Below, piece by piece: positions 10,649-30,946 of a stretch of DNA of 37,005 nt. Source of the stretch: Planctomycetota bacterium (GTDB taxonomy: Bacteria; Planctomycetota; Phycisphaerae; Sedimentisphaerales; Anaerohalosphaeraceae); assembly GCA_030637065.1 (NCBI GenBank), contig DAOVVQ010000001.1:1-37005 (forward strand), written 5' to 3'. A model generated the notes under the pieces. The model searched no databases. It was given only the letters and a program-made list of their open reading frames with translations, and was not told where the DNA came from. The stretch's first letter is position 1, and every line of letters begins with the position of its first letter. Position numbers and translations under genes: made by a program.

Positions 10649-10794
10649 GCGACTGTATATTAAAGGTTAAGAGGGAGCCTGTCTGACTATTCGGAGGAGG
10701 GCAGGTGCCTGTGGCAAGCCAAGGGTGGGGTGGCAAAGTGAAGCCGCCGGGTCTCCGTTGCAGGCGAGAAAATTGGCCTTGTAAAGGTGCCGTG

Positions 10795-12000
10795 ATGGAA
10801 AGTTTTGCATACATAGCCCAGGATATTAATGGGCGCCGCAAGAGTGGACGCAGGCGTGCAGTTTCTGAGCATGAAATTGTTGCCTGGCTTAACGAGCGCG
10901 GTCTGATTCCCGTTACCATTGAAAATGCCGATGCCGAATCGGGCAAATCGCCGACTCTTGGGCAAAAGCGCCCTAAGTATGCCGACATGGCATCCTTCTG
11001 CTGGCAGTTGGCTACGATGGTCGAAGGCGGAGTATTGATCACCGAGGCGATATCTACAGTTGCCGAAGATGTTGACGATTCTTCCTTCCGGGAAACGCTC
11101 ATGGATATTTCCGAGCATATTCAAAAGGGTGAATCCTTTTCCAGAAGTGCTTCGAGGTACCCCAAGGTTTTCGACAGGCTTTCCTGCTCCATGCTGCTGG
11201 CGGGCGAAACCAGTGGTTCTATGCAAACGATCCTGCACCGTATGGCGGATTTCTTTTCCAGCCGCGACCAGTTTGTCAAGAAGCTGCAAACAGCCCTTGC
11301 CTATCCGATCTTTGTCGTTGTATTCGTGTTTGGAATCCTTGTGATCATGATGACTCTGATCATTCCAAGGTTTCGGTCGATATTCGATCAGATGGGTGGC
11401 GAGTTGCCTGCTTTTACGCGGGCGTTCCTGAGTGTTTATGATCATATAGCCGCCAATAGCGGTTATGCCGCCGTTTTCATGGTCTTCGTCATGTTTATGT
11501 TGTACATATACAGCAAGTCCAGTGAGGGCTATGCGCGGATATGCAGGGTGACTCTTGATTTGCCGTTGTTCGGTCGGCTGATCAGACAGGCCTTCCTCTC
11601 CACTTTCTGCAAGACAATGGCCACCCTTCTTGCCGCGGGAGTTTCAATTATCGAATCATTCGATATACTTTCCGAGATGACAAACAATTACATACTGAAA
11701 GATGCTGTCGTAAGCACCAAGAACCGCACGATCGAAGGGCTAAGCGTATCCAGAGCCATGGCGATGAACGACGTCTTCCCGAACATGGTTGCCAAGATGG
11801 TTCAGGTCGGAGAAAAAAGCGGTTCGCTGCCAAAGGTTCTCAACCGCGCCAGCTCTTATTATGAAAGCAAGATGGATACCACCGTGGCGACACTCTTGAG
11901 CCTTCTCGGCCCTGTGGTGATCGTAGTGGTCGGTGCGATCGTATTGGTAGTGGTAATAGCGTTGTATCTGCCGATCTTCGCTATGTCGGATATTCATTAA
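10795..12000 (+). CDS. gspF: Type II secretion / type IV pilus inner-membrane platform protein (GspF/PilC family)
   Basis: Track ORF 10705..12000. The ATG at 10795 (AAGGTG 5 nt upstream) gives MESFAYIAQDINGRRKSG..., 401 aa. It shows the duplicated GspF-type domain architecture, three hydrophobic spans (PIFVVVFVFGILVIMMTLIIP, AAVFMVFVMFMLYIY, LLGPVVIVVVGAIVLVVVIALYLPIF) and the family-typical C-terminus ..LYLPIFAMSD. Confidence 0.9.
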   Translation: MESFAYIAQDINGRRKSGRRRAVSEHEIVAWLNERGLIPVTIENADAESGKSPTLGQKRPKYADMASFCWQLATMVEGGVLITEAISTVAEDVDDSSFRETLMDISEHIQKGESFSRSASRYPKVFDRLSCSMLLAGETSGSMQTILHRMADFFSSRDQFVKKLQTALAYPIFVVVFVFGILVIMMTLIIPRFRSIFDQMGGELPAFTRAFLSVYDHIAANSGYAAVFMVFVMFMLYIYSKSSEGYARICRVTLDLPLFGRLIRQAFLSTFCKTMATLLAAGVSIIESFDILSEMTNNYILKDAVVSTKNRTIEGLSVSRAMAMNDVFPNMVAKMVQVGEKSGSLPKVLNRASSYYESKMDTTVATLLSLLGPVVIVVVGAIVLVVVIALYLPIFAMSDIH

Positions 12001-12068: not shown

Positions 12069-12103
12069 ATAGTGCTTTGTAGTTGATGCGGTGGGGATTT
12101 GTT

Positions 12104-12511
12104 ATGCAAAAACGAAAAGGTTATACTTTGGTTGAGTTGCTGGTTGTGGTGTCCATTGTGGTGATCCTGGCTGCCGTAATTATTCCGATACTGAAAGGAA
12201 GGATCGATGCGGCCAATTGGTCGGAAGGCAAAGCTCTTATGGGTTCTATAAGCCAGGCGATCCGGACCTATACGGCGGCCAGAAATGAAACTCTTTACAA
12301 TTTCGACGAGCTTAGTCAGGCGGCACTGGGCTTTTTGGACAGCGACCTGGATGGTGTCTATTTCGACAAGGATGATTTTTCCTGGACAGGTGATTATGAC
12401 GTGAGTGAAAATCGATTGACATATACGATCATAGCGATGGCGGGAGAGGGAATATCTACCCCGTCGAAGATGACGCTTGATCAGGACGGTACATGGCAGG
12501 AGTTTCCGTAG
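12104..12511 (+). CDS. Prepilin-type major (pseudo)pilin, paralog 1
   Basis: Class III signal MQKRKG|YTLVELLVVVSIVVILAAVIIP (Glu at +5). 135 aa. About half of the residues are identical to the next gene (RIDAA.WSEGKA.MG.I, LGFL..DL.G.YF..D.F.W.G.YD..EN.L..TI.A.AGE.I..P.K.TL). No Cys pair. Confidence 0.85.
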   Translation: MQKRKGYTLVELLVVVSIVVILAAVIIPILKGRIDAANWSEGKALMGSISQAIRTYTAARNETLYNFDELSQAALGFLDSDLDGVYFDKDDFSWTGDYDVSENRLTYTIIAMAGEGISTPSKMTLDQDGTWQEFP

Positions 12512-12563
12512 CCTGACAATTGACATGTGGAGAACCGGAGTAAACGAGAAAATCGGTGATATG

Positions 12564-12592
12564 GTGGCGTTATGTGGCGCCACAGATTTTTT
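12564..12592 (+). terminator. Hairpin + T-run between the two pilin paralogs (intrinsic terminator/attenuator)
   Basis: GTGGCG (12564-12569) pairs with CGCCAC (12578-12583) across an 8-nt loop. AGA and TTTTTT (12587-12592) follow. Confidence 0.45.
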
Positions 12593-12617
12593 ATAATTTT
12601 GTAGGAAGGAGTATGTT

Positions 12618-13028
12618 ATGAGAACAAGAAAAGGGTTTACATTGGTGGAGTTGATGGTGGTGATTCTTATCGTCGCCATCCTGGCTGCTGTCGCGATTCC
12701 GATCATGCGGGGTCGAATTGATGCAGCCAAGTGGTCCGAAGGCAAGGCGATTATGGGCACGATAGCCAGTGCGCTGCGTGCCTATATTGCAGAGAAGGGC
12801 CTCGATTATCCGAATTTCGATGCGATCGATCGCACCGCTCTGGGTTTTCTCAACGAGGACCTGTCCGGAACCTACTTTAATCAGGATAACTTTACTTGGG
12901 TAGGCAGTTATGATCGCACAGAGAATGACCTGGTCTTCACGATTACAGCTACGGCTGGCGAAAGCATTAAGTCGCCCACGAAAGTAACATTGGCCGAGAA
13001 CGGCGAATGGGTGGAAACAGCACTGTAA
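12618..13028 (+). CDS. Prepilin-type major (pseudo)pilin, paralog 2
   Basis: MRTRKG|FTLVELMVVILIVAILAAVAIP. 136 aa. Strong SD GGAAGGAG upstream. Paralogous to 12104..12511. Confidence 0.9.
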   Translation: MRTRKGFTLVELMVVILIVAILAAVAIPIMRGRIDAAKWSEGKAIMGTIASALRAYIAEKGLDYPNFDAIDRTALGFLNEDLSGTYFNQDNFTWVGSYDRTENDLVFTITATAGESIKSPTKVTLAENGEWVETAL

Positions 13029-13055
13029 GCAAGTGAGTTAAGTCAGTAAAGGGAC

Positions 13056-13104
13056 AGGGGCCCCCCTCGACATGAACGAGGGGGCCTCTGATCCCCTTTG
13101 TTTC
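13056..13104 (+). terminator. GC-rich hairpin downstream of the pilin pair (probable intrinsic terminator, weak T-run)
   Basis: GGCCCCCCTCG pairs with CGAGGGGGCC (about 10 bp with one bulged C, 7-nt loop ACATGAA). It is followed by ..CCCCTTTGTTT. Confidence 0.45.
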
Positions 13105-13126
13105 GGACGGAATTGTGGGGTGAGGG

Positions 13127-13582
13127 ATGATGAATTTGGCAGGCAGAGGCAGCAGGCAAGCGCGCGGCATGACGCTGGTTGAAGTGATCATAGCCTGTGT
13201 GGTTGTAGCAATTGGCGTTGTCGGGGGACTAAGCTACGGTTACCACGGCGCCGTGCAGACCCAGCGCGCAAGAGCCTATGCCAGTGCCGTTCGCGTAGGG
13301 TATTATCTGCTTGAGGACTGGAAGGCCAATGGGGGTTCTGAGTTGTACGCCAGCGCCGCCCCCATGGTTCCAAATCCGACAACATTGGAGATAGACGGCC
13401 AGCAGTTCTCTTATAATGACGATGGATATTTTAAAATTACCGTGGAAGATGTCGATATGCGGATAGAACTTATTCGACCTTTCGGATATCGGCAGTTTAT
13501 GGACTTGTCAGCAAGAGTTAAATGGCAGCGAGGGTCGGTTACGCTTTCTACGAATGGACGAGTGGACCAGGCCGGAGACTGA
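13127..13582 (+). CDS. Minor pseudopilin (prepilin-type N-terminus)
   Basis: MMNLAGRGSRQARG|MTLVEVIIACVVVAIGVVG (Glu +5). 151 aa. Located directly after the major pilins. Confidence 0.7.
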   Translation: MMNLAGRGSRQARGMTLVEVIIACVVVAIGVVGGLSYGYHGAVQTQRARAYASAVRVGYYLLEDWKANGGSELYASAAPMVPNPTTLEIDGQQFSYNDDGYFKITVEDVDMRIELIRPFGYRQFMDLSARVKWQRGSVTLSTNGRVDQAGD

Positions 13583-13584
13583 GC

Positions 13585-14235
13585 ATGAAGACGGGCAGGA
13601 ACAAGTTGATCGGCAGACGACGCGTCAGGAAGGGGATTACCCTGATCGAACTGGCTGTGACTTGTACCATATCCGTCATTCCGCTCACTGCCATCAGTGT
13701 AATGGTTGTCGGCGGTCAACGGGATTGGGAGCGGATGTACCAGAGAGCCAACCGGATAACGGAGATCGAGGGCCATGGCGCTACGGCTATCTTTGGTCAT
13801 ATCGGAAGAATATCGTACAGTGAATATTCTCAACTGTTATCTGTCGGCGACGAGGCTCCTGTGCTATCCATGGCACCGGGCGGAGGAATGCTCGAGTCAG
13901 GGCAGGTCGTTGTATTCAGGTTTTGGGACCAGGGAGCGGTATCCTTAGGTCATGGCGGACCGGGTAATGTCGGTTCTTCCAGACTTCCCAACCGTTATGC
14001 CCGATTCTACCACGATACGCAGGAAAAAACTTTAGTTGTCGAACTCGGTTTATATCCCGGCAGCCAGCGAGATATCGTACCGCAGATCCTTGCCGAGAAT
14101 GTTACTTCTGTTCGTTTTGATCGCACAGAAATAAACAACAGCAAGCAGGGTTGTATTAGAATGGAAATGACGCTTACGGACCCTTCGGATGGCAGGAAGT
14201 CCGTCGTAATGGCGACAACACTTTTGAGAAACTGA
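13585..14235 (+). CDS. Minor pseudopilin (prepilin-type N-terminus, GspJ/PilW-like by position)
   Basis: Track ORF 13522..14235. The ATG at 13585 lies 3 nt after the upstream stop and gives MKTGRNKLIGRRRVRKG|ITLIELAVTCTISVIPL. 216 aa. Confidence 0.7.
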   Translation: MKTGRNKLIGRRRVRKGITLIELAVTCTISVIPLTAISVMVVGGQRDWERMYQRANRITEIEGHGATAIFGHIGRISYSEYSQLLSVGDEAPVLSMAPGGGMLESGQVVVFRFWDQGAVSLGHGGPGNVGSSRLPNRYARFYHDTQEKTLVVELGLYPGSQRDIVPQILAENVTSVRFDRTEINNSKQGCIRMEMTLTDPSDGRKSVVMATTLLRN

Positions 14236-14296: not shown

Positions 14297-16228
14297 GTGG
14301 GTTTGAACCACAGAGATATAATTAAGTTGCGCCGTCGCAGGTCGCAGAAGGGCTTCATACTTATTATGGTCGTCGCCGCGGTCCTTATACTGGCGATCAT
14401 CGGCCTCGGTCTGCTGAAAATATCTTACGGTGCGCGCCTCCGGGCGGTTCGCATTCAAAATGTCGCATCGGCAAAACTGGCCGCCGAAGCCGGGTACGAA
14501 AAGGCGATACACTGGATGAGTGAGCAGGAAGATCTCCTCGGTACGATGGCTCCTCTGCCGGGAAGGAACGACAGGGGTTCAAGTGCAGTCAAGGCGATAA
14601 GCGTTGAAGACGGAATTAGCTTTGCGAGCAGTAATGCCAATTATGCGATTAGTTTTGAGGATTTCAGCGACAGCCAGGCCATGTACAAGATTATTTCAAG
14701 AGGGCATTGTGGCCGGGAGGGGCATTGGGTTATCGAGGCCCTTGTAACACAGGCTGTGACAGGATGGGACATAGGCCGCACCAGGGTTCCCGCCGGATCG
14801 CACATGCTCAATGAGATACCTGCCTTCTTTATGAAAGACGATATCATTGAGATGCCTTTACATATTAATTGTCACGGTTGGCCGGTTGATTACATTTGGC
14901 CTGAAGATGGCGACGCGGATATCCGTCTCCTGGGAAAAACTGCACTGACGCATCGTGTTTCTATGGGAGAGTCCCGCTACAGAAGCTGGGGACGGGATAA
15001 GGACAAGTATGCCAGAATAATAGGGCGATTTAAAGGGGGTATCTTTTTTGACCAGCCTAACAGCAAGATAAGCGGTCCTGCCAGCCGTAGCAGTATTGAA
15101 AAAAGGGTACAGAGATTCGAACACGATACGAAAAGTGCCTTCAATTTTTCGAAAAGGACCGGCAATCAACCGAGAATCAGCCCTGTGATCCCAGCTGTTG
15201 ACGAACGTGTCAACGTGCCAGCCGTACAGTTGGAGTTCTACCTCAAATCCAACACCGGTATGGTCAGAGTTACCAATAACTGTACCGTTACCACCCTTCC
15301 CGGAGGCAAGTTTGACTACGTTCGTGACTTTGACAGCAGTTCTCATGCATACAAACCATCACTTGTCTATGGTTATCATTACGCCAGAAGCTATAACCGG
15401 TCGGTAACTTATGACGGTCCGATCGCGGGAAGCTACGTAAGCCAGAAGATAACTTTGCCTTCGGGTAAAGTGGCGGAAACTGAAAAGGGAGGGCATATCT
15501 TTGTCGATGGCAATGTAATTGTTGGCGGTGCGGTCCAAAGCATCGGTGATCAATGGCAAATTAACATTAAGCTCGTCCCAGGCTTTACAAAGTGGTATCC
15601 AAGCAAACTAAAAGGGCGACTTACGGTTGTCGCGACGGGAAACATCTGGGTTGTAAGCCCCCTGGAATACGACGGACCGCAGTTTAGCGAAACTGCCAGC
15701 GATGGAAATCTTGTTAAGAGAGCCCCTCTTTCGGATAATGACAATGTTTTGCACCTGTTTTCTCAGCATGGCACGGTAAAGATAATTGATCCTCGCCTAA
15801 GCCGGTATCTCCCGAGGCAATCGTATCAGCCTATCAAATATACGGATCAGGAAGGCGCTCAACTGGAATATCAGCCGGTTGCCGCCAAAGGTTTCGGCGG
15901 CTCTTACTTCTATCGCATCCTTCCGTCGTCAATGGTGGTCCAGGCGGCGATAACATGTGGCGGTGGCAGTTGGGGAATGGAGAATTTAGGTTCAAGTTCA
16001 AGAAGATTCGACAAAGAGGCGACTTTGATTCTCGCAGGGGCGATAGTGGAGCCTGTGCAGGGAGCAGTGCTACATGGAGCCGGGGGATATAAAAGGAACT
16101 ACTATTTTGATGAAAGATTTTTAAACGGCATTTTGTCGTGTAATATGGGATTGCAGAGCAAATATATTGTTGCTCCCGGGGGATGGAGTGATCGGGATTA
16201 TCAGGAATATGCCTTGTTAAGTGAGTAA
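14297..16228 (+). CDS. Very large PilX/GspK-like minor pilin (no Glu+5) with ~580-aa C-terminal domain
   Basis: N-terminus ..RRRSQKG|FILIMVVAAVLILAIIGLGLLKISYGARLRAV....AKLAAEAGYEKAIHW matches the PilX_N/GspK pattern (hydrophobic helix without Glu5, then AAEAG). 643 aa. The start is GTG 14297 or TTG 14303 (GGGAG upstream). Confidence 0.65.
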   Translation: MGLNHRDIIKLRRRRSQKGFILIMVVAAVLILAIIGLGLLKISYGARLRAVRIQNVASAKLAAEAGYEKAIHWMSEQEDLLGTMAPLPGRNDRGSSAVKAISVEDGISFASSNANYAISFEDFSDSQAMYKIISRGHCGREGHWVIEALVTQAVTGWDIGRTRVPAGSHMLNEIPAFFMKDDIIEMPLHINCHGWPVDYIWPEDGDADIRLLGKTALTHRVSMGESRYRSWGRDKDKYARIIGRFKGGIFFDQPNSKISGPASRSSIEKRVQRFEHDTKSAFNFSKRTGNQPRISPVIPAVDERVNVPAVQLEFYLKSNTGMVRVTNNCTVTTLPGGKFDYVRDFDSSSHAYKPSLVYGYHYARSYNRSVTYDGPIAGSYVSQKITLPSGKVAETEKGGHIFVDGNVIVGGAVQSIGDQWQINIKLVPGFTKWYPSKLKGRLTVVATGNIWVVSPLEYDGPQFSETASDGNLVKRAPLSDNDNVLHLFSQHGTVKIIDPRLSRYLPRQSYQPIKYTDQEGAQLEYQPVAAKGFGGSYFYRILPSSMVVQAAITCGGGSWGMENLGSSSRRFDKEATLILAGAIVEPVQGAVLHGAGGYKRNYYFDERFLNGILSCNMGLQSKYIVAPGGWSDRDYQEYALLSE

Positions 16229-16389: not shown

Positions 16390-17466
16390 TTGGGCTTGAA
16401 GCATATATTTATGGGCCATAAAGACATTTTTGGTCTCGATATTGGCGTCTCCTGTGTCAATGCTGTCTGGCTGCGCAAAGACGAGGGCGATTATCGTGTT
16501 ATCGCCGCTGGTCGCAAGAGGGTAGCCCATGCCAGCCGCGGTCAACTTGCCCCCGATGCCCTCATTATCAAGGCGATACGAGAATGTGTCAAATCTGTGA
16601 AGATTAAGACCAAATATGCGGTTTGCAGTTTGTCCGGCAATGACATTGCGTTGCGGCGTTTCGAATTTCCTGTCGTCAGTGACGATGAACTTGCCAATGC
16701 GGTGCTGTTTGAGGCCGAACAGGTCTGCCCGTTCGAAGAGGGCCAGTTTATAGTTGACTACCAGTTGATGAACAATAACAGGCTGGGCTCGAAGAAACTC
16801 GACGATCAGAGTTCCGATGGCCTGACATGTGGTATTCTTGTCGCGGCAATGGCGGATGTCATCGGTCACAGAAATCAACTTGTACGAAAGGCCGCTTTGA
16901 ATTGTGTACTAATGGATATTGACGGCCTGGCCCTGCTGAACTGTTATTTGGAGTGCGAAAAACAGGAGGCGGGCAAAACAACAGCGCTGCTTCATATTGG
17001 GGATAGTTTCAGTAATCTGGTGATACTTCCTGACGGTGGATTGCCGTTTGTGCGGGATATTCCACATGCAGCCACTGAGATTATCGGTCGGGTCAGCACC
17101 GAACATGTCTCGCCAGATGCGATTCGAGACACTTTTTACGGCTGGAGGCAGGATGGACGCCATGACCAGACGATACGCAGCGGTATGGCGGCGGCATGTA
17201 CACCGTTGATCGCGGAAGTTACGGAAACCCTGCGGTATTACGCACTGCATGAAGGCCAGGCGGTGGATAAGATATTTGTTTGTGGGCATCTTGGCGCCGG
17301 TCAGGATACGTGTGAATTGCTCGATGCCAGGCTTTCACCAAAAGTGGTCTTGTGGAACCCGTTCGAGAAAATGAGATGCGACAGTAACTGTCGCGGATTC
17401 GATATTATCAAGGCGCACGGCCCTTCGCTTGCTCTTGCGGCGGGTCTGGCGATGAGGACAATTTAG
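16390..17466 (+). CDS. pilM: PilM-like actin-fold assembly protein
   Basis: 358 aa. N-terminal GLDIG phosphate-1-type motif. Its size and its position immediately upstream of two small bitopic proteins match pilMNO operons. GAGGGAG lies 7 nt upstream of TTG 16390; the ATG at 16411 has no SD. Confidence 0.7.
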   Translation: MGLKHIFMGHKDIFGLDIGVSCVNAVWLRKDEGDYRVIAAGRKRVAHASRGQLAPDALIIKAIRECVKSVKIKTKYAVCSLSGNDIALRRFEFPVVSDDELANAVLFEAEQVCPFEEGQFIVDYQLMNNNRLGSKKLDDQSSDGLTCGILVAAMADVIGHRNQLVRKAALNCVLMDIDGLALLNCYLECEKQEAGKTTALLHIGDSFSNLVILPDGGLPFVRDIPHAATEIIGRVSTEHVSPDAIRDTFYGWRQDGRHDQTIRSGMAAACTPLIAEVTETLRYYALHEGQAVDKIFVCGHLGAGQDTCELLDARLSPKVVLWNPFEKMRCDSNCRGFDIIKAHGPSLALAAGLAMRTI

Positions 17467-17467
17467 C

Positions 17468-18103
17468 ATGTTAACAATAGATCTACTAAAAGGTCAGGGT
17501 ATTCCTATAAAGAGCAGACCCGGTGGGGCTACGCTCCTGGCCATCTCGATCGCCATGCCGGTCATCGTGACGATCTTCGGGCTCGGCGACTATATGCGCA
17601 GTAACATAGTACTATCTACGAAATGGCAGGATGTGGCAAGAAAGGAAAGTGAAATTTCCGAACTCGCCGAATCTATGCGGGCACACGAGGACTCTCAGCG
17701 CGAGGCGATACAGATCAACAGTTGCCTGGGCGAACTCGGCGAGATTATGGACCAGCAGTTGCAGTGGTCCCCGATCCTGGAAGTGGTGGCACGCAATGTC
17801 CCGGATGCCATTGTTCTCGAAGAGCTTGTAGTCCAGTCGGAAAACGTATTCAAGACAGTTCCGCTCCGTCGGGATACTACCAAAAATATCACCATTTCGG
17901 TCCCAAGAAGGCGGCTGATCCTGAATATTTACGGTAAGTTGGGTGTAGACAGCGATGAGGCGGTCCTGACTTTTCTTCATAAGTTGGCTGCCTCGGAGGT
18001 CCTAAAGCAGAGGGTGGCTAATATCCGCAAGTTGTCGCAAAAGACGGATGAAAAAAATGAGATCATGCATTATACGATAGAGTGCGTTTTTAAGGTCAAT
18101 TAG
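17468..18103 (+). CDS. pilN: PilN-like bitopic inner-membrane protein
   Basis: 211 aa. MLTIDLLKGQG... resembles the PilN INLLP N-terminus. Single TM LLAISIAMPVIVTIFGL followed by a coiled-coil-like region. Starts 2 nt after the pilM stop. Confidence 0.55.
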   Translation: MLTIDLLKGQGIPIKSRPGGATLLAISIAMPVIVTIFGLGDYMRSNIVLSTKWQDVARKESEISELAESMRAHEDSQREAIQINSCLGELGEIMDQQLQWSPILEVVARNVPDAIVLEELVVQSENVFKTVPLRRDTTKNITISVPRRRLILNIYGKLGVDSDEAVLTFLHKLAASEVLKQRVANIRKLSQKTDEKNEIMHYTIECVFKVN

Positions 18104-18116
18104 GTACCAGTGTTTT

Positions 18117-18698
18117 ATGAAGCCGATACATAAAAAATTTCTTGTTACGATCACAATACTCTGGGCAATGGCTGTAGCCACATTTGCCGGACTTCATTTT
18201 TTGCTTCTGAGTCCCCAGAAAGAGGCGATGCTTCTTGTCAATGAGAAACTTGCTCAAAAGGTCGAGGAACTTGAGCAGTATCAGGCTGTCGGATTGCCGG
18301 GAGTTCGCATCGAATGGGACGAGCGGATAGAAACGATGAGTGCGAATCTGGGCCAATATGTGGCCAATCCTCAAAATCTCGACAGGCTTGCCTTCAGTAT
18401 AAGCAGGATAGCCAACGAGATCGGTGTAAAAGGGTTCTCAAGCAAGGAACTGGGAGAAAAGTCATACGCCGAAATGCCGAATTATGACTATATTGGTCGC
18501 AGCAGTACATCGGTTAGTTTTATCGGTACGTTCAATCAGCTTGCCCAGTTTATAAATGCCCTCGAGCGTCACGGACCGGTCGTATTTCTTGATGAGTTTA
18601 CAATTTCAAAGGTCCGCCGCGTCGAGAACGAAAGCCAGGTTCATATCTTATACAATATGTATGTCAGAATGGAAAATGAAGAGGTCGTCCCCGAATAA
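18117..18698 (+). CDS. pilO: PilO/GspM-like bitopic inner-membrane protein
   Basis: 193 aa. Single TM LVTITILWAMAVATFAGLHFLLL, then a coiled coil (EKLAQKVEELEQYQ) and an alpha/beta C-terminal part. Assigned mainly by position after pilM/pilN. Confidence 0.5.
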   Translation: MKPIHKKFLVTITILWAMAVATFAGLHFLLLSPQKEAMLLVNEKLAQKVEELEQYQAVGLPGVRIEWDERIETMSANLGQYVANPQNLDRLAFSISRIANEIGVKGFSSKELGEKSYAEMPNYDYIGRSSTSVSFIGTFNQLAQFINALERHGPVVFLDEFTISKVRRVENESQVHILYNMYVRMENEEVVPE

Positions 18699-18758: not shown

Positions 18759-19538
18759 ATGAAAGTAATAGCGGTTGCAAATCAGAAAGGCGGATGCGGC
18801 AAGACCACCACTACGGTCAATCTTGCAGCGGCGTTTGCCCGAATGAACAAACGCGTTCTGGCGATCGATTTTGATCCTCAGGGCCATGCCGCGTTGGGGC
18901 TGGGGTACAATCTGTCGGATGCCGGGCATGGTATATATGATGCCCTGACGAACATGCAGATCCCGATATCGAGGGTTATCAGACGCACTTATATTCCGGG
19001 AGTCTATCTGGCGCCAAGTAATATCCTGCTTTCCGGGGTGGAGACCGAACTTGCCATGCGCCCCAGCCGCGAATATGTTCTCAGGCAACTGCTTGCAGAC
19101 CTCGGCGACAGCTACGATCTGTGTCTTATCGACTGCTCACCGTCGTTGGGGCTCCTGACCCTGAATGCCCTGGTTGCAAGCGATGAGGTGCTGATACCTG
19201 TTCAGACGCATTATTATGCGATCGAAGGTTTGAAGCAATTGCTCGAAACGGTAGACATTGTAAAGGGCCGTTTCAATCCTGCTTTGCAGATCAGCGGTAT
19301 GCTCCTGACGTTCGTGGAAAACAGGACGCTTTTGAGTCGCGATGTTCAGCGTCAACTGAGAGAATATTTTGGAGAGATGGTTTTTGACACGATGATTCAC
19401 AGGAATGTACGATTGGCCGAGGCTCCCAGTGCGGGCGAGTCGGTTATCACCTATGACGAAAAGAGTCGTGGTGCGAGAGAATACATGCAATTAGCCGAAG
19501 AGGTGTTCAATGGACAAGCGAAAAGCTGGACTGCATAG
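18759..19538 (+). CDS. Soj/ParA-family (deviant Walker A) ATPase embedded in the pilus/secretion locus
   Basis: Track ORF 18744..19538. The ATG at 18759 (AGGA upstream) gives MKVIAVANQKGGCGKTTTTVNLAAAFARMNKRVLAIDFDPQGHA.., plus DLCLIDCSPSLG (Walker B) and ..RNVRLAEAPSAGESVITYD... This is canonical Soj/ParA by eye. 259 aa. No parB-like gene is adjacent. Confidence 0.85.
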   Translation: MKVIAVANQKGGCGKTTTTVNLAAAFARMNKRVLAIDFDPQGHAALGLGYNLSDAGHGIYDALTNMQIPISRVIRRTYIPGVYLAPSNILLSGVETELAMRPSREYVLRQLLADLGDSYDLCLIDCSPSLGLLTLNALVASDEVLIPVQTHYYAIEGLKQLLETVDIVKGRFNPALQISGMLLTFVENRTLLSRDVQRQLREYFGEMVFDTMIHRNVRLAEAPSAGESVITYDEKSRGAREYMQLAEEVFNGQAKSWTA

Positions 19539-20343
19539 AAAGGTCTCATCTATCTTTGATGGTGTGCCCGTTCAGAAGGGTGGCGATGCAGCCGGTCCCG
19601 GTGAAAACCGCCCGAGTCAGCCGGCAGGCAGCGATGATGCCCGGCTTCAGGGTCCCGGAGATGTTTCCGGAAGTGGTGTCGGTGCATCACGATCCGATAC
19701 GCACAGGGCGACATTGGCAGAGAGGCTTATGGGCCATGGCGGAGGAAACGTTCCTTCGTCGCAGGCAGCCATTGCCAGAGGTGCCGGAAAGAAGCAATTC
19801 AAACTCTCGGGAAAAATACCCGGCGTCAGCGATGCGAAACGCAAGATAATGATTACCTTGTTGCCGATACTTTTGATAGTCCTTTGTGCAGCGCTCTATC
19901 CGACACTTTATCCCGCATCCGATCTTGCAAAAACGATAACCGATCTTGCCGGAGTGGATTCGGTGGGCCCCGGCCCGATGGTCGCAGTTAACAATACTGT
20001 TGCATGGACAGTTCCGCCGGTTTATCCGGAGGAACTTCGTGATCCTATGGATGTGCGGACGGCGGAGACGCTGGCTGGGGCGAATGTAAACCCCGAAGAT
20101 ATCGTCGGAGAAGGCGATGTTGTTGTCGGTGACGTCGGGGAAGACCAAGAGGAAGTTGATGTCGGCAAGGATATCAAAATAAAGAGCATTTATTTCAGTC
20201 AGAAAGGCAAGTCCATCGTTGTCGATGAAGAAATTCTTTACGAGGGAGACGTTTTCGCAGGCGCTACGATCCTCAAGATCAATGAGGCTGATGTCGAGTT
20301 CGAAAGGAATGGCGCCAATTTCTCCAGAAATCTTTACCCGTAG
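19510..20343 (+). CDS. Bitopic protein: basic N-terminal peptide + ~110-aa low-complexity cytoplasmic region + TM + periplasmic PilP/GspC-like C-terminal domain (tentative)
   Basis: 277 aa. The ATG overlaps the parA-like gene by 29 nt. Sequence: MDKRKAGLHRKVSSIFDG.., then a G/P/S-rich stretch, then TM IMITLLPILLIVLCAALYPTLY. The C-terminus IKIKSIYFSQKGKSIVVDEEILYEGDVFAGATILKINEADVEFERNG has the beta-sandwich pattern seen in PilP/GspC HR domains. Located immediately upstream of the secretin. Confidence 0.5.
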   Translation: MDKRKAGLHRKVSSIFDGVPVQKGGDAAGPGENRPSQPAGSDDARLQGPGDVSGSGVGASRSDTHRATLAERLMGHGGGNVPSSQAAIARGAGKKQFKLSGKIPGVSDAKRKIMITLLPILLIVLCAALYPTLYPASDLAKTITDLAGVDSVGPGPMVAVNNTVAWTVPPVYPEELRDPMDVRTAETLAGANVNPEDIVGEGDVVVGDVGEDQEEVDVGKDIKIKSIYFSQKGKSIVVDEEILYEGDVFAGATILKINEADVEFERNGANFSRNLYP

Positions 20344-20512
20344 CGTCGCAGAACCGAACCGGATCGGAACAATGATCCGCAAAACACGATTCTCTCCGGG
20401 ATACCGGATATTGTGATGGTCCTATAATAACGATTAAAGGGGTGATACGGGCTGTCGATGAATTCAGGGGTGGCTAAAAAGTATTGAAATTGGTCTCGTG
20501 GGGCGATTTTTG

Positions 20513-20541
20513 TTGATTTTTTGAGACGATCCTGTTATAAT
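20513..20541 (+). promoter_or_regulatory. Sigma70-like promoter upstream of the secretin gene
   Basis: TTGATT (20513-20518), a 17-nt spacer, then TATAAT (20536-20541), ~180 nt upstream of the ATG at 20720. Confidence 0.45.
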
Positions 20542-20719
20542 AATGCCGTCTAAGCAGGTATAGACAAAGGGTTTACGTAAGGGAGGCAGACGGTGATGAA
20601 GTGTTCCTCATTTCAGGAAGCGGTCTTCGCAAATGCTGCGATGGCGGTCTCCCTTGCGCTGGAAAAATGTTCAAACGACCAATATAGTGGGGTGAATCCG
20701 AAATAGATCGGGGGTTACA

Positions 20720-22159
20720 ATGAGTATCGGGGTGAAAAGTTTCTCTAAGAATTGTCTTTTGGCATGTGTGACAGCCTTGCTCTGTCTCGTCCCAGCCGCA
20801 GATGCGCAGGATCAATCTTCCGGCATCCATGACCAAAGGGTGATCACTGAGGCGCAGAGGAGACTACAGACCAACGTCAGTTACAAGTGCAGGGACATGT
20901 CCATAGACCTGGTACTTGACCAGTTGTCCGACCAGGCCGATATCGACATCATCAAGAGCCCAAAGGTTATCGGCAACGTAACCGTCAAGGTGACCGATGT
21001 GCCCCTGGACGAGGCGCTCAAGATCATCCTCGAGGTTCACGGATGGACTTACATACCCAGCGAAAACATGATCAAGGTAATTCCCATCGATGAAGTTGAG
21101 GTCGCTGCCACGAGGCTTGGAACGCAAATCTATCAAATCACCTATGCCGATGTCACTGAGGTTGCCTCCGCCTTAAAAGAATTCATCAAGGACCAGGGCT
21201 CGATTGCCGTAAATAAAGGCACCAGCAATATAATTGTTACCGCCAACGAAAACATGATCAAATCGATAAATCAGTTCGTCGAAGAGATCGACCGCATAAC
21301 ACAGCAGGTTCTCGTTGAGGTCCAGATATATGATGTAACAAGTACGGGTCGTCTTGACATAGGTATTGACTGGAATGCAGGGCGAACTACGACTTTTGGC
21401 GAGTCAAGTGAGGATAGTGTCCCGTTCCTTGGCAGTGATGAGGCTCGCCCGCTTACAGGCGGTGCGCATGAGCCCTACGGTAAAGCCAGTTTCAGTGGAG
21501 CGACAACGTTTACCGAGGCTGCGGAAGGCACGCTGGATATTGGCATATTGAATTCGCACATAAATGTGCGGGCTATTCTGCACTTGCAGGAAGAGGTCGT
21601 CTCGGCAACTTTGCTTGCAAATCCCCGGGTACTTGTGCTGAATAATGAAACAGCGACATTTAAGAGTGTAAGCGAGTTTCCGTATGTAGACGAGAGTCAA
21701 AGCTCCTATGGTGGGAGTCTGACTACGATCCAGTTTAAGGAGGTAGGCGTGGAACTCGATGTTACTCCGCATATTGCCAGAGATGGGATGATTCGGATTA
21801 AGATCACGCCTTCGTTCAGTGTTAAGGTCGGTGAGGTCAGCGGAGTTCCTGTCGTCGATTCACGTGAGGCCAACACAGTAACACTGGTAAGAGACGGCCA
21901 GACGGTTGTGTTAGGTGGTTTGCGAAAGAAGGAATCTACCAAACAGATCAACAAGATACCCTTGCTGGGTGATTTGCCTCTGATTGGCGGACTCTTCAGA
22001 TCCGAAGGCGAACAGGAAATAACCAATGAGCTGGTTGTCTTTATAACGCCAAGAATTATCGACGAGCCGGTACTATCCGATATTGAGGCCAGTCAGCTTA
22101 CGGAAATGAGTTTTCCCGCTCCTGAGATCACGGAGACAAAGGAGTATCATCTTGATTAG
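20720..22159 (+). CDS. gspD: Outer-membrane secretin (GspD/PilQ family)
   Basis: 479 aa. Signal peptide MSIGVKSFSKNCLLACVTALLCLVPAADA. N-domain-like repeats. C-terminal secretin signature VVLGGLRKKESTKQINKIPLLGDLPLIGGLFRSEGEQEITNELVVFITPRII. Confidence 0.9.
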   Translation: MSIGVKSFSKNCLLACVTALLCLVPAADAQDQSSGIHDQRVITEAQRRLQTNVSYKCRDMSIDLVLDQLSDQADIDIIKSPKVIGNVTVKVTDVPLDEALKIILEVHGWTYIPSENMIKVIPIDEVEVAATRLGTQIYQITYADVTEVASALKEFIKDQGSIAVNKGTSNIIVTANENMIKSINQFVEEIDRITQQVLVEVQIYDVTSTGRLDIGIDWNAGRTTTFGESSEDSVPFLGSDEARPLTGGAHEPYGKASFSGATTFTEAAEGTLDIGILNSHINVRAILHLQEEVVSATLLANPRVLVLNNETATFKSVSEFPYVDESQSSYGGSLTTIQFKEVGVELDVTPHIARDGMIRIKITPSFSVKVGEVSGVPVVDSREANTVTLVRDGQTVVLGGLRKKESTKQINKIPLLGDLPLIGGLFRSEGEQEITNELVVFITPRIIDEPVLSDIEASQLTEMSFPAPEITETKEYHLD

Positions 22160-22250: not shown

Positions 22251-23759
22251 TTACAAGCCGAACTTATCCTGCCAGTATTGGAGATAGTCCTCCGGGCTGA
22301 CGCCGGCGGCGAAGCCCCGGCCCTCCATACTGTTTACATAGCCGGACTCCATGCCATCCATAACATCCTGAGTGACCTCAGTATCCTCCATCTGTTGGCC
22401 CTGATCGCCGGTCAGGGCGATCCAGTTGTCTAATTCGTCGCTCAACTGATCCTGAATGGTCTGATACTGGCCCTGGCCGGCTAAATTATTTATCTCATGC
22501 GGATCGGCGTGCAAGTCGTAAAGCTCCTCCATCGGCCTGGCGGGCGCCATGAACTTATCCTGAGCCGGCGTAAGCTGGCCGCTGTTGTGAAGGACCCACA
22601 GGACGGTCAGCGCCGGATAGGACTTCCATTTGTAGGCGTTAAACGAGGTATAAGGGCCCGGCATATAGTAATCGCCGTAGAGCGATGTGTAGGGCTGATT
22701 CGGGAAGTAATTTCGGATGTACTTGTATTGCTTGCTGCGAACGCAGCGGACGCGGTCGTATGTCCCATCGTGGCGGTCGCGTGCGGCGAAGATGTAATCG
22801 CGTTTTTCCCTGCCCTGGCCTAAGAAGTCCCGGCCCTGCATGTGCCCCGGCGGCGTAAAACCGATCGCTTCGAGACAGGCTGGGCCGAAATCGATCGCAC
22901 TTACCAGATCGTCGCTGACCGTATTGGCCCGTAAGCGCCCGGGCCAGCGGATCAAAAGCGGAACCTTGATCCCGCCGTCGTAGAGGAACTGTTTGCCGCG
23001 AACGTGGCTCCTACCGTGGTCGCCGAAGAAGAACACTATCGTATTATCCGCCAGACCGTCATCTTCCAGCCGCTGAAGGACGGCGCCGACCTTGCCGTCG
23101 AGAATCTGCGCAGATTCAAGATAGTCGGCCCAGTCCCGGCGAACGATGGGGTGATCGGGATAGTAGGGGGGCAGTTCGACCTTGTCGGGGTCGATGGGAT
23201 TGTCGGGGTCGTTTACGAAGCCCCGGTGCGTCTGCTTGAAATTGACCTGCGCATAGAAGGGCTGATCGCCGTCGCGTTGTCTCCAGTCCGTGCCGTCGAA
23301 GGGCTTGGACCATGTAAAGTTGAAATCGGTCTTTCCCGGCTGCGTCCAGTTGCCGTCCTTGCAGTTGCACGTGAAATATCCTGCCTGGCGGAAGTAATCG
23401 GTGATGACTTTTACGTTTTCGGGTATGGTGTAGCCGTCGCCGCGGTGGCTGCGATGATGGTGGGCTCCGATCGCCGTCTGGTACATCCCGGTCATAAATC
23501 CCGAGCGGCTCGTCGAGCAGACCGGCGAGGCGGTAAACGCATTGGTAAATCGCACCCCGTCGCTGGCGAGATTGTCGAGGTTGGGCGTTTTCACCTCCGG
23601 CGTGCCATAACAGCCGAGATCAGGCGAAAAATCCTCGGCGATCAGCCAGAGAATATTCGGCTTTTTGGAGGAGTTAAAATCGACTTGGAGCGACCGGTTA
23701 GAAAGCAGTGCCCCGCCTGCAACGGCTGCGGACCTTCTCAAAAAATCACGCCGATCCAT
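22251..23759 (-). CDS. Tat-exported sulfatase (arylsulfatase A family) with non-canonical C-S-T-S-R active-site motif
   Basis: Track ORF 22251..23834. The ATG at 23759 (GGGAGGA upstream) gives the Tat signal MDRRDFLRRSAAVAGGALL. Other landmarks: PNILWLIAEDF, SPVCSTSRSGFMTGMY, FFFGDHG. 502 aa. Confidence 0.9.
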   Translation of the reverse strand: MDRRDFLRRSAAVAGGALLSNRSLQVDFNSSKKPNILWLIAEDFSPDLGCYGTPEVKTPNLDNLASDGVRFTNAFTASPVCSTSRSGFMTGMYQTAIGAHHHRSHRGDGYTIPENVKVITDYFRQAGYFTCNCKDGNWTQPGKTDFNFTWSKPFDGTDWRQRDGDQPFYAQVNFKQTHRGFVNDPDNPIDPDKVELPPYYPDHPIVRRDWADYLESAQILDGKVGAVLQRLEDDGLADNTIVFFFGDHGRSHVRGKQFLYDGGIKVPLLIRWPGRLRANTVSDDLVSAIDFGPACLEAIGFTPPGHMQGRDFLGQGREKRDYIFAARDRHDGTYDRVRCVRSKQYKYIRNYFPNQPYTSLYGDYYMPGPYTSFNAYKWKSYPALTVLWVLHNSGQLTPAQDKFMAPARPMEELYDLHADPHEINNLAGQGQYQTIQDQLSDELDNWIALTGDQGQQMEDTEVTQDVMDGMESGYVNSMEGRGFAAGVSPEDYLQYWQDKFGL

Positions 23760-23849
23760 AATTGATGTCCTCCCGGTGCCTGGGCTCCGATAAATCAGGA
23801 TTCCCGATTCACAGAGGCCAAAGCAATTCTGCAAAATATTAGCATAGCT

Positions 23850-24639: not shown

Positions 24640-26109
24640 TTACTTCTTTTTGCCGCGTTTCTTTGTTTCCGGTTTAGCTTTGGGGTTGTATTGCGGATTT
24701 GGTGCCTTTGGGATCGGTGCGTTGGTTTTCTTTTGCCATGCCATTAATTCTCGTAGCATCTGGTCGCGTTTTTCGGGCATGGACTGGGCGAGGTTTTTCT
24801 TTTCGCCGATGTCGGCTGTGAGGTTGTACAACTCTATTGAGTTGTTGCTTTGGCGTTTATCCCATCCGCCGTCGAGCGACCATTCTTCCATGAACATCAT
24901 CAGCTTCCAGTCGCCCTTACGAATGACCGAGACGGGCCTGGTCCTGTACAGCCAGTCTCGCGAGCCGGTCCAGCCGGACTGGTAAAGGTAGCCGGGGAAA
25001 TGCCAGAAGATGGGCCGGTCTTCGAGGGCCCTGCGGCCTTTAAGCAGGGGTACTATGGACGAACCGTCAAGCGGCTGACCCGTCGGCGGTTTGGCCCCGG
25101 CGAGATCGAGGAACGTCGGATACAGATCCGCTGCGCACACCGGCGTATCACAGGTCGAGCCCGTCCGGGTCTGCTTCTTCCAGCGGACGGCAAACGGTAC
25201 GCGAACGCCGCCTTCATAGTACATTCCCTTTAGGCCACGCAGCGGCAACTGCGAACTTATCGGGATGCCGCCATTGTCGGAAAGGAAGATCACCACGGTA
25301 TCCTCATCCAGCCCAAGTTCATCGAGCTTAGCCATGAGCCTTCCTACGCCGTCATCGGTGTGGGCGATAAAGGCCGCGTAATTGGGATTGTTCTGCCCGC
25401 CCACTCCTTTGCGGGTCTCGAACTTTTCGATCATCTCGGCGCGGGCCTGGATGCCCATGTGGATCGCATGGTGGGCAAGGTAGACCAGGAAGGGGCGGTC
25501 TTTGTTCTCTTCGATGAACTGACAGGCCTGGTTGGTATAGAGGAATATCTCCTTGGGGTCGTTGGTCTCTTCAAATTTTGTTATCTTTGGCGGGTTGGTC
25601 GGTAGTGCGGTGCCAAAGCCCTGTCCGGCTGGGCCGGTATCGCCGTCAAAATTGCCTACGTGCCACTTGCCGAACATCCCGGTCGCATAGCCGGCCTTTT
25701 TCATCGATTCGGCAAAGGTAATTGTCTGGGCAGGCAGCACTTTTGACTCTTCCACATCCGTAAGCGCCAGCCGATCGTTATACTTATTGCCGCGTCTGAC
25801 CGTGTTGACTGCATAGAGTTTGTGTCGCGGAGTGAACTGGCCCGATAGCAGGCACGCCCGGCTCGGCGCGCAGTTCGCGGCGCAGACGTAACCCTGCGTA
25901 AAGATCATCCCCTCAGCGGCAAGCCGGTCGATATTCGGCGTCAGGTAGTATTTGCTGCCGTTAAAACCGATGTCCTTATAGCCCATATCGTCGATGAAGA
26001 TGAGCACGATATTCGGTCTGGAGGCCTTGTTTTGTGCCAAAGCCCGCTGCGGCAGTCCCATTGTTGCCAGCCCGATTGACATCGTCTTGAGAAAGTCGCG
26101 TCGTTTCAT
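24640..26109 (-). CDS. Tat-exported sulfatase (canonical C-A-P-S-R motif)
   Basis: Track ORF 24640..26124. The ATG at 26109 (GAGGAT upstream) gives MKRRDFLKTMSIGLATMGLP. Other landmarks: PNIVLIFIDDMG, CAANCAPSRACLLSGQ, IFLSDNGG. 489 aa with a Lys-rich C-tail. Confidence 0.92.
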   Translation of the reverse strand: MKRRDFLKTMSIGLATMGLPQRALAQNKASRPNIVLIFIDDMGYKDIGFNGSKYYLTPNIDRLAAEGMIFTQGYVCAANCAPSRACLLSGQFTPRHKLYAVNTVRRGNKYNDRLALTDVEESKVLPAQTITFAESMKKAGYATGMFGKWHVGNFDGDTGPAGQGFGTALPTNPPKITKFEETNDPKEIFLYTNQACQFIEENKDRPFLVYLAHHAIHMGIQARAEMIEKFETRKGVGGQNNPNYAAFIAHTDDGVGRLMAKLDELGLDEDTVVIFLSDNGGIPISSQLPLRGLKGMYYEGGVRVPFAVRWKKQTRTGSTCDTPVCAADLYPTFLDLAGAKPPTGQPLDGSSIVPLLKGRRALEDRPIFWHFPGYLYQSGWTGSRDWLYRTRPVSVIRKGDWKLMMFMEEWSLDGGWDKRQSNNSIELYNLTADIGEKKNLAQSMPEKRDQMLRELMAWQKKTNAPIPKAPNPQYNPKAKPETKKRGKKK

Positions 26110-26242
26110 ATCATATCCTCGCATAAAAGTTAAATTGCCATATCACCGCCACGCATCCTACCACAAATGCCCCGAATTGCAAGAAATCACTGCTATGCGT
26201 GCCGTTTGGGCGGGTGCTGTTTGGGTCGAGACTTATTTATAT

Positions 26243-30321: not shown

Positions 30322-30490
30322 GCGGCAATCACGGCGAAGAACACGTGCTATTTCCCCCAAAACCACAGAATGTATACAGAAAAATCTTCCTTGATCGCGT
30401 CCGATAACCTCTTCGGGCCCAAAGTCAGCCCCTTTTTTGGACGATAGAATACTGGTGCAGGTGTATTCAATAAATAGGGATGGCAATAGT

Positions 30491-30946
30491 ATGCGCGATA
30501 TTAAAAAAGCATTCACATTAGTAGAATTAATGATAGTGGTGGCGATCCTTGGCATAATGGCTGCCATCGTAATTCCCGCGTTCCAGGGCAACAGCGAACA
30601 AGCCAGTGAGTCCGCCGCAAAGGAAACTTTGAGAACTCTCCGTCAGCAGATCGAGTATTATGCGATCGAACATACCGGCGTTGCACCCGGATACCCGGGT
30701 GATGACCCTGCGGTTGTCCCGAATTCCGCCACCTTTAATATGCAGATGAAAGACGGCGGATACATATCAGGCCTGCCTCTAAATCCCTTTAATAATGAGA
30801 CGACCATGTCGGTTTTAGCAGATGCGGATGCCTTCCCAGCCGCTGCAACAGGGGCAACCGGGTGGATATATCAGCCCAAAACAAAAATAATAAGACTCGA
30901 CTGGACGGGAACAGACTCAGCGGGCGTCTCATATTTCGCGTATTGA
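30491..30946 (+). CDS. GspG-like prepilin-type protein, paralog A (Ala at -1)
   Basis: Track ORF 30437..30946. The ATG at 30491 gives MRDIKKA|FTLVELMIVVAILGIMAAIVIPAFQGNSEQASESAAKETLRTLRQQIEYY. 151 aa. C-terminus GWIYQPKTKIIRLDWTGTDSAGVSYFAY. Confidence 0.8.
   Translation: MRDIKKAFTLVELMIVVAILGIMAAIVIPAFQGNSEQASESAAKETLRTLRQQIEYYAIEHTGVAPGYPGDDPAVVPNSATFNMQMKDGGYISGLPLNPFNNETTMSVLADADAFPAAATGATGWIYQPKTKIIRLDWTGTDSAGVSYFAY

Follow-up and report, generated by a model that had tools for sequence, protein, structure and literature searches.

The 37,005-nt stretch analysed here (contig DAOVVQ010000001.1 of a Planctomycetota bacterium; hereafter the window, meaning the whole stretch) carries a type IV filament operon in which a gene for a ParA-like ATPase lies between a pilO-like gene and the gene for a bitopic inner-membrane protein, which we call X and which is followed by a secretin gene (Table 1). 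An earlier reading of this DNA, made from the sequence alone, had placed a canonical deviant-Walker-A ATPase between the pilO-like gene and the secretin gene, and both the motifs and the Pfam matches of the flanking genes agree with this placement. It had also stated that the 3' end of the ATPase gene overlaps the next gene by 29 nt, which we confirmed. The overlap is consistent with translational coupling, and a Shine-Dalgarno-like GAGGTG stands six bases upstream of the X start codon (ATG 19510). Here we describe the two proteins, the inheritance of the ATPase together with a ParB-like tag at the N-terminus of X, and the possibility that the pair positions a secretin machine.

The ATPase contains the motifs NQKGGCGKTTT, AIDFDPQGH and LIDCSPSLG and matches the Pfam families AAA_31 (1e-58) and CbiA (2e-27). 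Its deviant Walker A, Walker A' aspartate and Walker B motifs are all intact, and the Walker A' aspartate, D39 (DFD39PQG), was present in 117 of the 117 members of its clade. By sequence comparison the protein is assigned to Soj/ParA type Ib, with the Walker A variant KGGCGKT, because Soj/ParA structures outscore both MinD and McdA: Myxococcus xanthus ParA (8RAY) reached 229 bits, Thermus thermophilus Soj 207 bits and Helicobacter pylori Soj 171 bits, against 64 bits for MinD and 61 bits for McdA. The nearest family is therefore the one that the sequence-only reading had named. MinD identity was rejected (minD_bact, 48 bits against a cut-off of 213), and by inspection the C-terminus (...AEEVFNGQAKSWTA) is unlike the amphipathic membrane-targeting helix of MinD-type proteins. 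TadZ/CpaE identity was likewise rejected, as the 259 residues make up the ATPase domain alone, CpaE_hom_Actino scored 24 bits against a cut-off of 154, and the locus is of the PilB/PilC/PilMNO/secretin type; an FlhG-type ATPase was ruled out by scores and missing domains.

Alignment with 8RAY allowed the residues that form the ParB-peptide pocket in M. xanthus to be located in the window ATPase, where T96, L130, L132, L135, I167 and F172 correspond to V116, L150, L152, L155, L187 and L192, respectively. Hydrophobic residues prevail at all six positions in the clade; position 96 is usually L, F, I or V, although the window ATPase has T there. The position of the DNA-binding arginine (R238 in M. 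xanthus, R189 in Bacillus subtilis) is occupied by R or K in 113 of 117 ParAs linked to X. As judged from this alignment, the ATPase keeps both the ParB-peptide pocket and the DNA-binding arginine, and it probably binds the nucleoid. Cys13 of the Walker A motif (18795-18797) was found in 97% of the X-linked ParAs, with valine at this position in the sampled ParB-linked relatives (n=8); compared with the same eight sequences, Y152, E156, L183 and H214 are further clade-specific residues of the X-linked ParAs.

The encoded N-terminus of X reads MDKRKAGLHRKVSSIFDGVPV, followed by a G/P/S-rich stretch. The sequence-only reading had described X as a basic tail, a low-complexity region, one transmembrane (TM) segment and a PilP/GspC-like periplasmic domain; this layout stands, with the low-complexity region measuring about 85 aa and not about 110. 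A homolog search returned 56 matches, nearly all full length, from metagenome-assembled genomes (MAGs) of Planctomycetota/Phycisphaerae/Sedimentisphaerales, of which 30 were aligned. Conservation in this alignment peaks at three sites, namely the first ~20 residues, a periplasmic W..RDPM motif and the last 55 residues. The first of these, the tag, has the consensus MAKRKxGLHKKVSSIFDGVPVP, with I15, F16, D17 and G18 fully conserved and near-invariance at G7, L8 and H9; in the periplasmic motif W166, P169, Y172, R177, D178, P179 and M180 are invariant. The linker between the tag and the TM helix has a median length of 95 aa across the homologs (range 72-524) and, close to the membrane, contains a basic segment that is semi-conserved (K.F..SG.IPGVSDAKRK). 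In three loci (L065:8396-10453, L072:2-1045 and L075:9218-10507) it is expanded to several hundred residues of E/P/K-rich tandem repeats, giving X proteins of up to 685 aa, and the tag, TM helix and C-terminal domain are retained wherever the N-terminus lies on the contig.

An AlphaFold2 model built on the X alignment was confident for the TM helix and the domain at residues 222-275 only, and residues 1-107 were predicted to be disordered. In a Foldseek search of the PDB, the top match was Dickeya dadantii GspB (4wfw; probability 1.0, root-mean-square deviation 1.7 A over 56 columns), and the other top matches were an M. xanthus PilP model, LspC, two PilP structures and PulC-HR; the GspC-HR domain of enterotoxigenic Escherichia coli in complex with GspD (3oss_C) was also matched with a probability of 1.0 and a TM-score of 0.73 on the target. 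As the search was run on the full-length model, 60% of which is disordered, the E-values are weak and the statistics modest, with a consistent ranking and consistent local deviations. The Pfam model T2SSB (GspB) matches 25 of the 30 family members weakly, all under the Pfam cut-off. The predicted C-terminal domain thus has the HR fold, as the label PilP/GspC-like had implied, and the structural search refines its closest relatives to the HR domains of GspB and GspC. Since the HR domains of GspB, GspC and PilP bind the secretin's N0 domain, one per secretin subunit (PMC9239104), X would by analogy be the link of the inner membrane to the secretin. X adjoins the secretin on its upstream side in most loci with downstream sequence, and the window secretin has an N0/STN domain. 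From pilM to the secretin gene, X was the one HR-domain protein identified, and it therefore seems to take the place of GspC/PilP; its topology is like that of GspC and GspB, with an unusual extension into the cytoplasm.

Conservation of the locus was followed in two surveys, one from the X side, with one genome per species (79 loci), and one from the ParA side, on metagenome contigs (80 loci, 74%-42% identity). Across 108 loci, drawn from many species-level lineages, the order PilM-PilN-PilO-ParA-X-secretin was kept, and in the X-side survey it held wherever there was sequence upstream. Of these loci, 93 have overlapping parA and X genes, and 13 more have the two genes 3-6 nt apart. In the pooled loci, a tagged X had ParA upstream in 108 cases, and an untagged X never did. 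Three loci with a tagged X and no ParA upstream are uninformative, X lying less than 300 nt from the contig end. Two informative loci lack both: in L047:2994-3509 and L067:2565-3116, the gene right after pilO encodes an X of 166 or 170 aa, respectively, that starts at the membrane-adjacent segment. These natural minimal loci could serve as evolutionary knock-outs. Short X genes in L056, L060 and L072 were considered as additional cases of joint loss and rejected, since L056 lacks sequence upstream and, in L060 and L072, the gene extends past the start of the contig. ParA and the tag are therefore co-inherited and lost together. No discordant locus was found, so that the co-occurrence of ATPase and N-tail proposed in the sequence-only reading is borne out; and as related loci keep ParA (108 of 108 with an N-tailed X), the ATPase is not a local insertion, a possibility which that reading had itself raised.

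The same separation is seen among the ATPases themselves. In the ParA-side survey, ParAs of at least ~56% identity with enough flanking sequence always lay between pilO and a tagged X, and at ~52% identity or less the partner, where identifiable, was a ParB beginning M..KKRGLGRGLDALLG with a GERR box; the nearest relatives of the ATPase are thus not parB-linked Soj proteins. A neighbour-joining tree of 151 distinct ParAs placed 117 of 117 X-linked sequences in one clade and 8 of 8 ParB-linked sequences outside it. In the 37-kb window, ParB signatures (GERR, GLGRGL) were absent from every frame, and a search for the parS consensus with up to 3 mismatches gave one match with 3 mismatches, which is chance level (12 of 100 shuffles yield one); the statement that no parB or parS-like partner is nearby therefore holds for the window.

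Several variants of the ATPase were noted in the survey. About one locus in eight carries two parA paralogs before X, in tandem between pilO and X (L003, L006, L014, L016, L017, L018, L032, L036, L050, L088, L090 and L093), and L055:5848-9097 has the order PilO-ParA-PilO-ParA. The Walker A motif is intact in the X-proximal copies that were inspected (L088, L090 and L093), the copies do not separate cleanly in the neighbour-joining tree into an upstream and a downstream clade, and the paralogs might act as heterodimers. In L025:8674-10008, L075:7891-9225 and L077:7957-9348, ParA has a strongly acidic, repeat-containing, D/E/Q-rich C-terminal extension of ~190 aa, which could modulate DNA binding. 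A high-GC lineage contains ParAs of the same clade (KGGCGKT, 53-55% identity) that do not adjoin X, at L121:3600-4799 (minus strand) and 5977-6813, L123:6001-6810, L125:932-1780 and L127:3517-4332; one L121 copy lies directly upstream of pilB-pilC-pseudopilin on the minus strand, and no tagged partner was found near the ParAs of these four loci.

The tag of X resembles the peptide by which ParB contacts ParA. As a rule, the partners of ParA/MinD proteins work by way of an N-terminus that is charged and disordered (PMC10241942, PMC11407121), and in M. xanthus it was shown experimentally that ParB contacts ParA through L11, L15, L18 and I19 together with a central R13, that this arginine is a lysine in about half of ParBs, and that the ParB peptide and DNA jointly stimulate the ParA ATPase (PMC12462528). 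The tag of the window X has a basic K3-R4-K5, after which L8, R10, V12, I15 and F16 correspond to ParB L11, R13, L15, L18 and I19. Comparison of GLHKKVSSIF in X with GLGRGLDALL in ParB gave identical spacing: hydrophobic residues occupy i, i+4, i+7 and i+8, and K/R stands at the central position i+2. The N-tail had earlier been called basic, which is correct; it is not merely basic, and has in addition the hydrophobic spacing and central K/R of the ParB motif.

We extended this comparison to 89 distinct X tags and the ParB N-termini of the surveyed loci, anchored on the common G-L (G as position 0). Positions -3 and -2 are basic in the X tag (K and K in ParB); position 0 is G in 100% (G in ParB), +1 is L in 96% (L), +3 is K/R in 94% (R), +5 is I/V in 97% (L), +7 is S/A (A), and +8 and +9 are I and F, each in 100% (L and L). 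Within the first 35 residues, the motif G-phi-x-[KR]-x-phi-x-x-phi-phi occurs in 114 of 3450 open reading frames of at least 100 aa from all loci; these comprise 99 X proteins, 8 ParBs and 7 others, the last all on the strand opposite the operon. The window holds a single further match, 51 residues into an unannotated frame and thus away from an N-terminus.

Residue 17 of the peptide, which comes right behind the invariant I-F, shows covariation with residues 170-173 of ParA, on either side of F172 in the pocket (mutual information with average product correction, 96 distinct loci). With an acidic residue 17, ParA carries R171 (57 versus 2), and with a non-acidic residue 17 mostly H or N (27 versus 10); the association holds in 48 clusters at 80% identity (29 and 1 versus 5 and 9). 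This covariation fits a salt bridge at the predicted interface. Together with the synteny, the parA-X coupling, the joint loss, the separate clade, the tag-pocket correspondence and the recurrence of the tag described below, it leads us to regard the ATPase and the tag as likely partners, and we infer that the tag would bind ParA and stimulate its ATPase.

The same tag was found on an unrelated protein. In five loci (L097:280-1474, L122:3-1266, L160:5220-6519, L161:5220-6507 and L162:524-1811), a sister ParA that is 55-62% identical to the window ParA, has KGGCGKT and belongs to the same branch is directly followed by the gene for a soluble protein of ~160 aa, with a 14-nt overlap in L160-L162. 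This protein starts MARSKGGLQKNVRSIFQDA, in which G7, I15 and F16 are invariant and in the same register as in X. An acidic linker comes next, and the C-terminal domain contains seven invariant Cys; no Pfam family matches the protein. Because X and the Cys-rich protein are otherwise unrelated and share just the peptide and the place behind ParA, the sequence pattern is hard to explain otherwise than by the tag being a handle for ParA. On the opposite strand, L122 and L160-L162 have glycogen phosphorylase, GH77 and GH57 genes as neighbours, and a glycogen granule as the cargo of the Cys-rich system is speculation. A further candidate lies in L151:1355-3328, where a ParA of 44% identity precedes a 282-aa protein that starts MTARKHLGRGLESVSHLF, a ParB-like tag, and has no GERR box; it may be another non-ParB partner.

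The ATPase and X are encoded within a single plus-strand operon at 8.4-22.2 kb of the window (Table 1). NCBIfam models scored the secretin at 247 bits for PilQ and 214 bits for GspD, each under its cut-off, and no AMIN domain was detected in it with Pfam. Because NCBIfam cannot separate a pilus from a secretion system, we label the machine type II secretion system/type IV pilus (T2SS/T4P)-like. The N-terminus of PilB/GspE matches an MshE-type cyclic di-GMP motif (NF053729, residues 16-66, 42 bits against a cut-off of 38), so the machine may be regulated by cyclic di-GMP. X and the secretin gene are separated by 376 non-coding nt (20344-20719), in which a promoter-like site, TTGATT-17-TATAAT with TG (20513-20541), suggests that the secretin may have its own promoter too; a scan of the operon for promoters and terminators returned nothing else noteworthy.

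Table 1. Features of the type IV filament operon, the ATPase and X in the window.
Feature	Position	Strand	Details
PilB/GspE ATPase gene	8472-10229	+	N-terminal MshE-type cyclic di-GMP motif
PilC/GspF gene	10705-12000	+	
Four prepilin-type genes	12083-14235	+	prepilin N-methylation motifs
Gene for 643-aa protein	14297-16228	+	family not assigned
pilM	16390-17466	+	PF11104, 1.6e-25
pilN-like gene	17468-18103	+	N-terminus MLTIDLL
pilO/gspM-like gene	18117-18698	+	weak PilO/GspM match
parA-like gene	18759-19538	+	259 aa from ATG 18759; open reading frame opens at GTG 18744
Deviant Walker A K10-GGCGK-T16	18786-18806	+	signature lysine K10, P-loop lysine K15
Segment with equivalents of the ParB-peptide pocket, and R171	19146-19274	+	8RAY alignment, residues per PMC12462528
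R218, equivalent of DNA-binding arginine R238 of M. xanthus	19410-19412	+	within RNVRLAEAPS; 8RAY alignment
parA-X overlap	19510-19538	+	29 nt
Gene X	19510-20343	+	277 aa, bitopic inner-membrane protein
N-terminal tag of X, residues 1-22	19510-19575	+	MDKRKAGLHRKVSSIFDGVPVQ; core G7-L8-H9-R10-K11-V12-S13-S14-I15-F16-D17-G18
G/P/S-rich cytoplasmic linker of X, residues 23-107 (~85 aa)	19576-19830	+	disordered, pLDDT <50
TM helix of X, residues 108-133	19831-19908	+	AlphaFold2 helix, pLDDT 81-87; hydrophobic ITLLPILLIVLCAALY
Periplasmic motif of X, W166-x2-P-x2-Y-P-x3-R-D-P-M180	20005-20049	+	conserved; just past the TM helix
C-terminal six-strand HR domain of X, residues 222-275	20173-20334	+	GspB/GspC/PilP fold, pLDDT ~90
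Secretin gene	20720-22159	+	N0/STN, Secretin_N and secretin domains; PF00263, 6.5e-46

Within the window the operon is flanked by ordinary chromosomal genes: two sulfatases, enolase, phosphatidylserine decarboxylase and a RodA/FtsW homolog. Just 5' of the operon, a gene at 3544-6945 encodes an 1133-aa protein with a signal peptide, right-handed beta-helix repeats and a C-terminus that is dockerin-like by eye (DYNRNGVVDSDDL...), and just 3' of it lie the sulfatase genes (22251-23834 and 24640-26124, minus strand). The beta-helix protein and the two sulfatases are plausible secreted substrates, and as such favour a secretion role for the machine. Two more genes with prepilin N-methylation motifs (30437-31428) stand 8 kb past the operon and adjoin a PEP-CTERM protein gene (32147-32758, minus strand).

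From these observations we propose that ParA and X form a two-part module inside a Phycisphaerae T2SS/T4P-like machine, with ParA-driven spacing, a reading that we hold to be about as probable as its negation. In this mechanism, the periplasmic HR domain of X would dock on the N0 ring of the secretin, as those of GspC, GspB and PilP do, so that many copies of X would sit under each secretin, each hanging its tag in the cytoplasm on a flexible linker of ~95 aa. The Soj-like ParA would dimerise with ATP, probably on the nucleoid, and the ATP-bound dimers would attach to the tags, which would switch them off. Cycles of binding and release would then set the spacing of the machines over the membrane that faces the nucleoid, or divide them among the daughter cells, an outcome modelled on ParABS, McdAB and ParC/PpfA, which act on plasmids, carboxysomes and chemoreceptor arrays. 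Positioning that depends on the nucleoid falls just short of an even chance in our estimation. A broader view, in which Phycisphaerae possess a family of ParABS-derived systems that use the ParB peptide as a portable tag on non-DNA cargo, carried here by the ring-forming HR subunit of a secretin machine that nucleoid-bound ParA would space or partition, and in the sister system by the soluble Cys-rich protein, is put forward tentatively.

Several points weigh against positioning by ParA. The loci come nearly all from MAGs or metagenomes of Phycisphaerae/Sedimentisphaerales, and the ParA tree was built by neighbour joining with midpoint rooting and a ParB-linked outgroup of eight sequences. The covariation statistics ignore phylogeny, and when covariation with the tag was computed over the whole ParA protein the top pairs were not enriched at the pocket, only the pairing of ParA 170-173 with peptide position +10 being interpretable. 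The predicted nucleoid binding rests on a single conserved arginine region and overall likeness to Soj, and some ParA-like proteins with such DNA-binding residues, such as ParC, have not been observed on the nucleoid (PMC11407121). In addition, a secretin machine fixed in the wall may be too immobile for a diffusion ratchet, and control of the site or time of new machine assembly is equally compatible with the data.

The last of these points leads to an alternative that we regard as possible, on the unlikely side, in which ParA and X act as a switch for assembly or number control that involves no nucleoid track, and ATP-bound ParA dimers bridge or cluster the N-tails of X. Such a switch could nucleate or license ring assembly under the secretin, limit the number of machines, as FlhG does for flagella, or aid secretin assembly, as GspA does with GspB. 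Synteny, coupling, co-loss, the separate clade, the tag, the pocket, the covariation and the portability of the tag fit it equally well, and an envelope-fixed secretin complex would be poor mobile cargo. GspB, the best structural match of X, is usually encoded next to the gene for the cytoplasmic ATPase GspA (PMC9239104), and TadZ/CpaE is needed for building the Tad secretion apparatus, with no known nucleoid transport (PMC11407121). However, the window ATPase is a close relative of Soj, scoring 229 bits against M. xanthus ParA, still has the region of the DNA-binding arginine, and has neither a MinD-type C-terminal amphipathic helix nor the N-domain of TadZ, and the long flexible linker (median 95, up to 524 aa) suggests reach away from the membrane.

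The roles of the two partners might also be reversed, the machine serving as a membrane landmark on which the X tags mimic ParB to capture, sequester or switch off a chromosomal Soj-type ParA whose true job is chromosome organisation, segregation or replication control. A Soj-like ATPase with a retained DNA-binding residue and a tag that mimics ParB are what this arrangement would call for, but we consider it improbable because, in more than 100 loci, parA belongs to the machine operon and its translation is coupled to that of X, because ParA and the tag have been lost jointly while the machine persists (L047 and L067), and because the pairing of the sister ParA with another tagged protein agrees with a pattern of one ParA for each cargo. 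Some loci moreover have two tandem ParA copies, the window contains no parB or parS, and the ParB-linked ParAs form a separate group. Finally, the recent or chance insertion of an ordinary chromosomal soj beside an X whose N-tail is unrelated low complexity, which the high similarity to Soj and the automated annotation 'chromosome partitioning protein' might suggest, is refuted by the survey, which showed a position kept in 108 loci, overlapping genes, a tag with several invariant residues, joint loss of ParA and the tag, and a separate clade of ParAs; we give it practically no credence.

We compared the ParA-X module with known systems. The closest is the chromosomal ParA(Soj)-ParB-parS system (M. 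xanthus, 8RAY; T. thermophilus), which likewise has a ParA of type Ib that includes the deviant Walker A motif, catalytic Asp, peptide pocket and DNA-binding arginine, and a partner, encoded directly downstream, in which G-L-x-[KR]-x-[VIL]-x-x-[IL]-[FIL] comes after an initial run of basic residues. An adjacent parB with parS is lacking here, the downstream gene being X in 108 loci, and X differs from ParB in having no helix-turn-helix, no CTPase/GERR box and no parS, and in being a membrane protein that ends in an HR domain; the ATPases of the window type differ in forming a separate clade with KGGCGKT instead of KGGVGKT. McdA-McdB of carboxysomes, PpfA/ParC of chemoreceptor arrays and PomZ-PomXY are alike in that a ParA-like ATPase is encoded in the operon of its cargo and is contacted by the charged, disordered N-terminus of an adaptor that is part of or bound to that cargo. 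By contrast, the cargo here would be envelope-spanning and anchored in both membranes, and the tag is ParB-derived or ParB-like, not idiosyncratic, and tied to the cargo by a long transmembrane tether.

Among envelope machines, TadZ/CpaE of Tad (type IVc) pili is also an ATPase of the ParA/MinD superfamily whose gene lies in a type IV filament locus and which is required to position or assemble the secretion apparatus, but it is MinD-like, has an extra N-terminal receiver-like domain and forms a polar hub, whereas the ATPase described here is a plain 259-aa Soj-type ParA in a PilMNO-secretin locus with a defined tagged partner. GspA-GspB (ExeA-ExeB) likewise pairs a bitopic inner-membrane HR protein that binds secretin N0 with an adjacent gene for a cytoplasmic P-loop ATPase; GspA, however, is a membrane-anchored AAA+ protein with a peptidoglycan-binding periplasmic part, and the ATPase here is a soluble ParA, not AAA+/ExeA. 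PilP and GspC share with X the gene position, after pilO and before the secretin, and the HR fold. PilP, in contrast, is a lipoprotein with no cytoplasmic part, whereas X starts with the hydrophilic tag and has its sole hydrophobic segment at 108-133; GspC has a short cytoplasmic N-terminus and a PDZ domain or coiled coil after the HR domain, whereas X has a cytoplasmic extension of ~107 aa with the tag, ends two residues past the HR domain (residue 277) and has no PDZ match. X is therefore neither PilP, nor GspC, nor a GspA-partnered GspB.

The literature searched, where absence is no proof, gave no account of such a ParA at PilMNO/secretin or T2SS loci or from Planctomycetes; the secretion-linked ParA/MinD members named in PMC11407121 and PMC10241942 are TadZ/CpaE, BcsQ and VirC1 only. 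Placement of T2SS and type IVa pilus machines is known for few cases, such as the binding of AMIN-domain secretins to septal peptidoglycan and FimV/HubP-type polar landmarks (PMC10653833). If the proposed positioning is true, it would be the first ParA-based placement of a PilMNO-secretin machine, and would add a machine spanning both membranes as a new cargo class for ParA, in bacteria whose cell biology is poorly known. The tag on two unrelated proteins would be a natural case of the 'luggage tag' idea for engineered positioning (PMC10241942), and the sister ParA-tag pairs offer a system for studying how cross-talk is avoided. The proposal is open to direct testing, as the tag is 20 residues long and the contact residues on both sides are predicted by homology to M. 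xanthus ParA-ParB. That a ParA works with a tagged partner is an established principle; what is new here is the kind of cargo, the tether across the membrane and the evident reuse of the motif known from ParB.

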